From: Candidatus Woesearchaeota archaeon
GTDB taxonomy: Archaea; Nanobdellota; Nanobdellia; SCGC-AAA011-G17; CAYFGV01
Direction: 5' to 3'
Length of the DNA: 59,517 bases
NCBI GenBank assembly: GCA_964342845.1
Contig: CAYFGV010000001.1
Coordinates: 1 to 59,517, forward strand
Positions 39,364 through 40,194 of this stretch are shown one piece after another. The notes below the pieces were generated by a model. It saw only the letters and a list, made by a program, of their open reading frames with translations, was not told the origin of the DNA and did not search any database. The number at the start of each line of letters is the position of its first letter. The first letter of the stretch is position 1. The translations under genes were made by a program, and so were the position numbers.

Positions 39364-40194
39364 TTATAAATATTTTTCTTTTAATAATAATCTAGCATAA
39401 CCAGAACGTCTAAGTTTTTCTAATGCTAGTTTTTCAATCTGTCTTACCCTTTCCCTTGTTATAGAAAATATCTCACCAACTTCTTCCAGTGTTTTTGAAT
39501 ATCCATCTAGCCCATACCTTTGTCTAATAACTGTTGCTTCCCTTTCATTTAACTTATCTTCAATTGCTTTTCTCATCCCTACTCTTATATCTTCTTTTCT
39601 AATAACTTTAGTAGGATCATAAACTTCCTTAGTTGCAGGAATTTCAATTTTTTCAAAAGGACAATCAATATTTACAAAACCATAATCTTCCCTCAATTTC
39701 AATAAATATTTAACCTCTTCGTCATTTAAATTTAATTTAGTTAATAATTCCTCCATATCTGGTTTTCTAGCCAATTTTTGGCTTTCTTCATTAACCAAAT
39801 TCTCTAGTTTATTTAAAGTATTTAATTTATTAATAGGAAGCCTTACAACTTCTTTATTGTTTGAAATATATCTAGTTATTGCCTGTCTTATCCACCAAAC
39901 AGCATAAGTCGTAAATCTATACCCTCTACTACTATCAAATTTATCAACAGCCCTTATCAAACCAGTATTCCCTTCATTAATTAAATCTTGATTAGAAAAA
40001 GACCCATCAATATTAAAATATTGGGAAGCAATCAAGAAATTAAAACGAAGATTACCCTTAATTAATTCATGTTTTGCTCTTTCATCTCCATTTTCAACTC
40101 TCTTTACTATTTTATATTCTTCTTCTTCAGAAAGCAAAGGAAATCTACTAATATCCTTAACATATGCTTCTATACTTTGTTCACTATGTCTCAT
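39364..40194 (-). CDS. bacterial-type RNA polymerase sigma-70 family factor (group 1/2-like, no region 1.1)
   Basis: Region 2: [39 protein letters not shown]. Region 3: [14 protein letters not shown]. Region 4.2: [28 protein letters not shown]. Region 1.2-like N-terminus. Confidence 0.9.
   Translation of the reverse strand: [276 protein letters not shown]

Follow-up and report, generated by a model that had tools for sequence, protein, structure and literature searches.

A sigma-70-family gene, very probably domesticated, in a marine lineage of Woesearchaeota-type archaea

We analysed a stretch of DNA of 59,517 nt (hereafter, the window) from contig CAYFGV010000001.1 of a Candidatus Woesearchaeota archaeon (assembly GCA_964342845.1), which corresponds to the final 59.5 kb of a Tara Oceans scaffold of 99,947 bp, and in particular a minus-strand gene that an initial annotation had described as a sigma-70 factor lying among archaeal housekeeping genes. 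Very probably, this is a sigma-70 gene of bacterial origin that has become resident and domesticated in a marine Woesearchaeota-type (DPANN) lineage. The phenomenon itself is already published. What is new in this case is the archaeal promoter of the gene, a syntenic ortholog, a rate of change about four times that of the neighbours with constraint specific to certain domains, and the fact that no close donor was found.

In these phyla, sigma factors were reportedly noted by Castelle and colleagues as early as 2015, in Current Biology. Sigma-70 genes (family fam00359) are particularly prevalent in Woesearchaeota; for this family mis-binning was excluded by means of the co-encoded archaeal proteins, the DPANN sigma-70 genes were found to co-occur with those of TBP, TFB and TFE, no anti-sigma was found, and the mechanism was left open (Castelle et al. 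2021, PMC8204110). The mention of sigma-like genes in DPANN bins made in the initial annotation is borne out by that work. Our gene resembles fam00359 (PMC8204110) in that a bacterial-type sigma-70 gene stands beside taxonomically informative archaeal genes in a Woesearchaeota-type genome. Besides, divergent rpoS-like genes have been described on DPANN viruses and on a prophage (Nat Commun 2025, PMC12647753).

Architecture and functional residues of the sigma protein

The open reading frame (ORF), which starts with ATG, encodes 276 amino acids, and the four peptide strings quoted from it in the initial annotation are all present in the translation. The protein exceeded the cutoffs of the Pfam profiles for region 1.2 (Sigma70_r1_2, PF00140, residues 7-38; 36.1 bits, cutoff 22), region 2 (Sigma70_r2, PF04542; 52.2 bits, cutoff 24) and region 4 (Sigma70_r4, PF04545, residues 213-262; 61.5 bits, cutoff 24.1). 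The profile for region 3 (Sigma70_r3, PF04539) scored 23.7 bits, slightly under its cutoff of 25.3, and the corresponding part of the protein aligns unbroken with SigA. Among the NCBIfam models, the sigma-70 superfamily model TIGR02937 matched with 103.7 bits (cutoff 42.9), and the RpoD, RpoS, SigB and RpoH equivalog models were all far under their cutoffs.

In a phmmer search of PDB, residues 8-268 aligned without interruption with SigA of S. aureus, C. difficile and B. subtilis (E about 1e-53), and the protein was also aligned end to end with RpoS structures. Since the match to SigA begins at region 1.2, region 1.1 is absent; the non-conserved region of the primary sigmas is likewise missing. 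Precisely, the sigma factor that had been called complete has regions 1.2, 2, 3 and 4 in order, of which 1.2, 2 and 4 were recovered above the profile cutoffs and 3 was not, and it is without the two elements just named. In the AlphaFold2 model the mean predicted local distance difference test score (pLDDT) was 79, with values below 50 only at residues 178-197 (the sigma finger), 1-3 and 271-276, and the top 50 Foldseek matches of the model in PDB were sigma chains in 50 cases out of 50. The predicted architecture 1.2-2-3-4 is therefore described here as group-2-like, and not as that of a complete primary sigma.

We rejected some narrower assignments. For a primary (group 1) sigma of the RpoD/SigA type, the best RpoD model gave 207 bits, its cutoff being 572, and region 1.1 (PF03979) was not found in the protein; for a proteobacterial RpoS (group 2), TIGR02394 gave 204 against 378.7; for the anti-phage sigma MzaA, NF041931 gave 204.8 against 800, with a match limited to profile positions 460-709, hence lacking the N-terminal part of about 450 residues.

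To compare functional residues we used an alignment with 133 bacterial representatives, taken from the exhaustive search described in the following section, in which a position was considered near-invariant if conserved in at least 90% of the sequences. The archaeal protein keeps 55 of these 59 positions (bacteria on average 56.7, 5th percentile 53). Both the residues for melting and recognition of the -10 element (Y..WW.RQ..TR) and the motif TRERVRQIE were aligned to the corresponding SigA motifs: in region 2 the aromatic and the Q/T/R residues match SigA in the PDB alignment, and the recognition helix of region 4.2 corresponds to the bacterial consensus and is unchanged in the archaeal ortholog (P0248, see below). 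We take these residues to be, in E. coli numbering, Y430, W433, W434, Q437, T440 and R441, and R584, E585, R586, R588 and Q589. The positions presumably contacting the extended -10 element are N/N here against H/E in the consensus alignments.

Other parts of the protein depart from the bacterial pattern. In the PDB alignment, the sigma finger lacks about 6 residues relative to that of SigA, as well as the acidic motif. Changes that both archaeal orthologs have and that few bacteria show are grouped in two places, in regions 2.1-2.2 (V53F, K57S, R62I, a 2-aa insertion and Q73N) and at the junction between regions 2.4 and 3.0 (A109Y, D112N, Q113N, R115E and T116V); among these archaeal-shared residues, DLINEGN is present also in a bacterial subfamily.

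On the whole, the protein is similar to the RpoS-like group 2 sigmas and to the short primary sigmas of Bacteroidota type in the order 1.2-2-3-4, in a length of about 280 aa and in the lack of region 1.1, as well as in the conserved residues for -10 and -35 recognition and in the motifs DLINEGN, NLRF and YAVWW, which it has in common with a bacterial subfamily. It differs from them in that it is below all the equivalog cutoffs, has 35-44% identity to each sampled phylum and no sister group among them, carries a degenerate finger and is encoded in an archaeal genome.

The locus, its promoter and its relatives

The contig is archaeal, of DPANN/Woesearchaeota type (Woesearchaeota/Nanoarchaeota-like). 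As the initial annotation had stated, the genes around the sigma gene are archaeal: tryptophan-tRNA ligase (TrpRS), GatD (TIGR02153 gatD_arch, 427 bits), RNase J, L19e, L32e, S4e and aSUI1 were confirmed (by NCBIfam for GatD and RNase J), and the window also encodes RNase P p30, a TrmB regulator and a SecY with a Sec61-type plug. A tRNA of 114 nt at 9018-9131 (-), missed by ARAGORN, matched the full length of the Rfam model with 54 bits; most simply, it carries an intron, with about 40 extra nt, which is an archaeal hallmark.

In the public collection, 11 contigs encode a protein identical to this sigma. Six of them (L001-L006), deriving from different samples and assemblers, were read, and over both junctions of the gene each has 99.6-100% identity to the window. 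In the sigma gene there were zero nucleotide differences among the compared contigs, so that polymorphism within the population was uninformative as a test of selection. Given that at least six marine contigs, assembled independently of one another, have the same junctions, the gene is not the product of a chimeric assembly or of a bacterial contaminant, in agreement with the initial annotation, which had not regarded it as a contaminant.

More in general, the explanation of the gene as an artefact (a chimera or a contaminant contig) or as cargo of a prophage or defence island can be considered as effectively refuted. In its favour there are the bacterial best matches of only 41-44%, a generic match to MzaA and the rpoS-like genes on DPANN viruses (PMC12647753), with which our gene shares the condition of a divergent sigma-70-family gene associated with DPANN genomes. 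It differs from these viral genes in its housekeeping setting and in having no relative above 40% on viral contigs, and such a difference, together with the identical junctions in independent assemblies, argues against this explanation. In fact, two scans of viral contigs gave nothing closer than 40%, neither integrase nor phage genes were found within 10 kb of the sigma gene, and no defence genes or prophage context were detected, PADLOC giving just a generic sigma-domain match to MzaA.

The gene has the composition of its genome, as had been remarked for its AT-richness. Its GC content is 28.5% (window genes 30.5 +/- 2.6) and its GC content at third codon positions is 15.2% (window genes 19.7 +/- 3.8), and of 31 genes of comparable length only four are nearer to the window average in relative synonymous codon usage.

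The box that the initial annotation had noticed upstream of the start codon, TTTATAAA at 40216-40223, is indeed there and occupies a position common to many genes of the window: the motif TTTAWAWA, beginning at -33 to -28, precedes 16 of the 72 genes, where chance would give 0.42, and is mostly embedded in the longer string (A/G)GTTTATAAA. In the ortholog of contig L093 the box is TTTAAATA, at the same distance from the ATG. The putative promoter geometry given by TTTAWAWA is the standard one of this organism, and the sigma gene follows it. From this geometry it follows by implication that the mRNAs are leaderless or near-leaderless and are made by the archaeal machinery. Promoters of the (A/G)GTTTATAAA type, beginning 29-31 nt ahead of the ATG, precede, for example, the gene starts at 3233, 6458, 8967, 18660, 39341, 40194, 44250 and 46489, and also those at 50124, 53499, 54457, 57278 and 57950.

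Relatives of the protein were searched for by running phmmer exhaustively on 1.84 billion cluster representatives. Only one sequence was closer than ordinary bacterial sigmas, namely P0248, which is 280 aa long and has 48% identity over its full length; all the others had at most 46%. This means, as regards fam00359, that the marine clade was either acquired separately or is a branch evolving very fast. P0248 is encoded on a 2.7-kb contig, L093, which carries in sequence the C-terminus of TrpRS, the sigma gene, a gene for a PLP (pyridoxal phosphate)-enzyme-like protein and a gene for an unknown protein, that is, the same order as in the window.

Five other sequences (P0246, P0247, P0249, P0250 and P0365) were rejected as relatives, being duplicated or chimeric ORFs. 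They contain internally duplicated sigma segments and reach bit scores above those of the true relatives, and they are probably assembly or gene-calling artefacts of public metagenomes. P0001 and P0023, which are among the best bacterial-looking matches, both lie in bacterial contexts.

The synteny can be followed one step further from either side of the gene. The L093 copy of the PLP-enzyme-like gene is 78% identical to that of the window, and the next relatives are at 53-56%. In two of the loci reached through this gene (L179 and L180) no sigma gene precedes it, though the pair formed by the PLP gene and the unknown gene is kept there. In the four Woesearchaeota genomes reached through TrpRS (L089-L092), likewise, no sigma gene was found at the TrpRS locus. 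A 158-aa gene standing in place of the sigma gene among these relatives is unrelated to sigma. On this evidence of gene order, the residence of the gene at the locus goes back to the split of the two lineages and no longer. The gene can be called long resident, as it had been, in the sense that two diverged lineages share it at the same locus, and not in the sense of a residence extending to the next level of relatives. As for the pair itself, the PLP-enzyme-like gene (DegT/MJ1341_C) stays together with its overlapping neighbour of about 210 aa in the window (37939-39341, minus strand), in L093, in L179 and in L180.

A donor lineage, for which the initial annotation had suggested a sigma phylogeny, did not emerge. 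In a neighbour-joining tree of 255 columns that included named bacterial sequences, which is weak evidence by its method, the two archaeal proteins shared a long branch and no group was specifically sister to them, and the identity to every sampled bacterial phylum was 35-44%. A word-index search returned only bacterial RpoD-like matches at 38-44% identity, a scan of the GTDB representative genomes returned only bacteria at no more than 42%, and a scan of JGI metagenomes with clade-specific peptides returned a single match, at 35%. We observed that the 90% cluster of the sigma protein is represented by a 130-aa Tara fragment, and that of the PLP enzyme by a 46-aa fragment; a fragment as representative probably explains why the protein's own cluster is missing from the results of the word-index search.

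Selection on the orthologs and other features of the window

The window and L093 were compared by the Nei-Gojobori method, which gives nonsynonymous (dN) and synonymous (dS) distances. The three flanking genes have protein identities of 78-80%, dN of 0.11-0.125 and dN/dS of 0.05-0.21, with a dS of 0.61-0.75 for the two full-length genes and of 2.33, a saturated value, for the 82-codon fragment of TrpRS. For the sigma gene, we obtained a protein identity of 47.6%, a dN of 0.445, a dS of 0.79 and a dN/dS of 0.56. Hence the sigma protein has diverged about four times as fast as those of the neighbouring genes, while the synonymous distance is similar to that of the two full-length ones.

The change is distributed unequally along the protein. 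Region 2 is the most constrained, with 66% identity and a dN/dS of 0.26; region 4 has 53% identity between the orthologs, which do not differ in the recognition helix; identity falls to 29-38% in regions 1.2, 3 and 3.2, with dN/dS near 1 for 1.2 and 3.2 and a saturated dS for 3.0-3.1. Regional values of dN/dS are noisy (few codons, saturated dS, AT-rich genome) and we used them only relative to the neighbours. The comparison shows that the estimated constraint is concentrated, in the two lineages, on sigma domain 2 (sigma2) and on the region 4.2 helix of sigma domain 4 (sigma4).

The nucleotide divergence between the orthologs is 37%, the ORF is intact in both, and 51 of the 59 near-invariant bacterial residues are kept in both. 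A simulation that scattered the 302 observed nucleotide differences randomly over the gene destroyed the reading frame in all of 20,000 runs, with a mean of 18 stops, and because of this result we consider both copies as maintained by selection.

The coordinates of the gene, of its regions and of the adjacent features are collected in Table 1.

Table 1. Positions in the window of the sigma gene, its regions and its neighbours
Feature	Coordinates	Strand	Remarks
Sigma-70-family coding sequence, 276 aa, regions 1.2 to 4.2	39364..40194	-	ORF with ATG start; Pfam, NCBIfam, PDB alignment, AlphaFold2/Foldseek
Region 1.2, residues 7-38	40081..40176	-	PF00140, 36.1 bits; 38% identity between archaeal orthologs, dN/dS about 1
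Region 2.1-2.4, residues 40-113	39856..40077	-	PF04542, 52.2 bits; core-binding helix DLINEGN; melting/-10 recognition motif
Region 3.0-3.1, residues 114-176	39667..39855	-	PF04539, 23.7 bits; AlphaFold2 helices with pLDDT 72-85; 33% identity to ortholog
Region 3.2 linker (sigma finger), residues 177-205	39580..39666	-	Shortened, non-acidic; pLDDT <50 at 178-197; 29% identity to ortholog
Region 4.1-4.2, residues 206-263	39406..39579	-	PF04545, 61.5 bits; helix-turn-helix recognition helix TRERVRQIE
TATA box TTTATAAA	40216-40223	-	-29 to -22 from ATG; 21 nt from box to ATG
Archaeal-type tryptophan-tRNA ligase, directly upstream	40225..41334	-	NF008925, 406 bits; best named relatives in metagenome-assembled genomes of Woesearchaeota/Nanoarchaeota, 72-79% identity
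PLP-enzyme-like gene (DegT/MJ1341_C family), directly downstream	38547..39341	-	Own TATA box at -29; homologs almost all in DPANN archaea
206-aa protein, function unassigned, overlapping the PLP gene	37939..38559	-	Conserved pair with the PLP gene in DPANN; 35% identity to the L179 partner

Some features far from the sigma gene are also reported. Two adjacent genes at 44282-46489 (-) and 46531-48141 (-) encode large beta-helix/NosD-like proteins and share about 470 nt at 78.6% identity; they are a tandem paralog pair and possibly encode surface proteins. The gene at 933-2723 (+) encodes a 596-aa fusion of PIN, T2SSE/AAA ATPase and KH domains, an unusual architecture. A HicAB toxin-antitoxin pair lies on the scaffold just beyond the window (L177, 7883-8322). 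GC skew is markedly and persistently negative (-0.2 to -0.65) over 20000-59517, and nearly all the genes in this part of about 40 kb are on the minus strand.

Possible functions and their meaning

Very probably, the sigma gene either entered the ancestor of a narrow marine lineage of Woesearchaeota type or changed place inside it, and was then domesticated there, as shown by a composition and codon usage like those of the host, by a host TATA box at -29 and by an ORF intact in two diverged lineages. The protein would still be a sequence-specific module for binding promoter DNA made of sigma2 and sigma4, in which regions 1.2 and 3 and the sigma finger may be drifting almost freely and selection would be strongest on sigma domain 2; the constraint on domain 2, the invariant 4.2 helix and the drift of the other regions are the reasons for this view. 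Most likely, the protein still binds promoter-like DNA. In the reading that we rank first, and that we put forward tentatively, its place of action would be the archaeal cell itself, where it would regulate transcription in an accessory role, whether or not it touches the archaeal RNA polymerase directly, and would not serve for basal initiation. We prefer a regulator to a basal factor because the gene is absent from the locus in the next relatives, changes at about 4 times the rate of its neighbours, has a degenerate finger and lacks region 1.1. Its N-terminus, read directly from the sequence, does not resemble a signal peptide, and the published DPANN sigma-70 genes likewise coexist with TBP, TFB and TFE and have no anti-sigma factors (PMC8204110). 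Dombroski and colleagues are said to have found that region 1.1 of E. coli sigma-70 blocks DNA binding by free sigma.

Several observations weigh against this reading. We know of no sigma factor that acts without a bacterial-type polymerase, and a polymerase partner should still be needed here because the surface-exposed melting tryptophans and the motif that binds the clamp helices are conserved. No bacterial rpoA, rpoB or rpoC was found in the 59.5-kb window plus 10 kb more of the scaffold, as the initial annotation had expected and within about 70 kb seen; they may be elsewhere. The dN/dS of 0.56 also fits relaxed selection before a loss, or an arms race. Moreover, no candidate regulon was seen in the window. 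The consensus TTGACA-N16-18-TATAAT, searched on both strands of the window, showed no excess, since there were 53 sites with at most 2 mismatches against 58 +/- 8 in a first-order Markov model (Markov-1), and 4 with at most 1 mismatch against 3.2 +/- 1.6; this consensus is that of bacterial sigma-70 and may not be the specificity of this protein.

A string that nearly matches the bacterial promoter consensus, TTGACA-N17-TATAAG, is present at 16265-16293 (+), in the intergenic region 16123-16359 upstream of a nucleotidyltransferase/HEPN (MNT-HEPN-like) pair at 16360-17455, and overlaps the inverted repeat ATATGGT...ACCATAT. Because the number of sites in the window matches chance (4 against 3.2), this string is more likely an operator than a target of the sigma protein.

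The explanation ranked second, which we judge unlikely, is that the archaeon passes the protein, for instance across a cell-cell bridge, to a bacterium that is its partner or host, in which it would bind the core RNA polymerase and redirect transcription. In favour of this explanation, the determinants of holoenzyme formation are kept at bacterial level (55 of the 59 positions, among them the melting aromatics, the motif that binds the clamp helices and the -35 helix), and the fast evolution and lineage-restricted presence of the gene resemble those of effector genes. To our knowledge, the only established sigma genes in genomes without a bacterial polymerase of their own are those of phages and plant nuclei, and they work in this way: phage sigmas take over the polymerase of the host, and the nuclear SIG genes serve that of the plastid. 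No other mode considered here is known to have a precedent. The plastid sigmas encoded in plant nuclei (SIG1-SIG6) and the phage sigmas are, as in this case, encoded where the own polymerase does not use sigma; the difference is that for them the bacterial-type polymerase in the target and the delivery route (transit peptide, infection) are known. DPANN archaea are, besides, predicted symbionts (PMC8204110). On the other hand, by direct reading of the sequence there is neither a signal peptide-like N-terminus nor a recognisable secretion or translocation domain, there are no adjacent transport genes, and the degenerate finger and the altered regions 2.1/2.2 would be unexpected in a protein that has to fit into a bacterial active-site cleft. 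As far as we know, every DPANN host shown so far is archaeal, and we know of no bacterial partner for this lineage.

If instead the partner were the archaeal polymerase itself, region 2.2 would bind the clamp coiled-coil of archaeal Rpo1, homologous to the beta-prime clamp helices, and sigma2 and sigma4 would read DNA, so that the protein would initiate or modulate transcription at a subset of promoters, beside or instead of TBP/TFB. This hybrid holoenzyme is ranked third and appears to us quite improbable. In its favour, the only polymerase seen so far is presumed archaeal, yet residues for polymerase contact and melting are under selection, and the substitutions shared by the orthologs are concentrated in regions 2.1-2.2 and where region 2.4 meets 3.0, as expected for a re-tuned interface; sigma2 and sigma4 are moreover the minimal sufficient set in extracytoplasmic function (ECF) sigmas. 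We know, however, of no precedent for a sigma working with an archaeal polymerase, the archaeal clamp coiled-coil binds TFE and Spt4/5, and no equivalent of the flap-tip helix for sigma4 is known. Furthermore, the window genes have ordinary TATA promoters with no excess of sigma-70-type ones, and some of the residues that seem derived (DLINEGN) occur in bacterial subfamilies too. Very improbable, and fourth in rank, is a decaying passenger without function, acquired laterally rather recently, expressed and slowly being lost. The presence in two lineages only, with the next relatives without it, the dN/dS of 0.56 (about 1 in regions 1.2 and 3.2) and the fourfold nonsynonymous rate are what such a passenger would give; an ORF still open in both lineages after 37% divergence against 0 of 20,000 simulations, the dN/dS of 0.26 in region 2 and the 51 of 59 residues kept in both are not, nor is a full amelioration with a conserved archaeal promoter in a type of genome known for streamlining.

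Cellular life initiates transcription by two systems, defined by sigma factors and by TBP/TFB respectively, and a sigma serving an archaeal polymerase is not known. For this question the locus is a clean test case, offering several assemblies, an archaeal promoter, a syntenic ortholog and a clear pattern of constraint, and this pattern points to surfaces worth testing against bacterial and archaeal polymerases. If true, an action across domains on the polymerase of a partner would reveal that partner and a new mode of control by a symbiont; a sigma working with the archaeal polymerase would be, if true, a new kind of transcription system, with hybrid bacterial-archaeal initiation or regulation.

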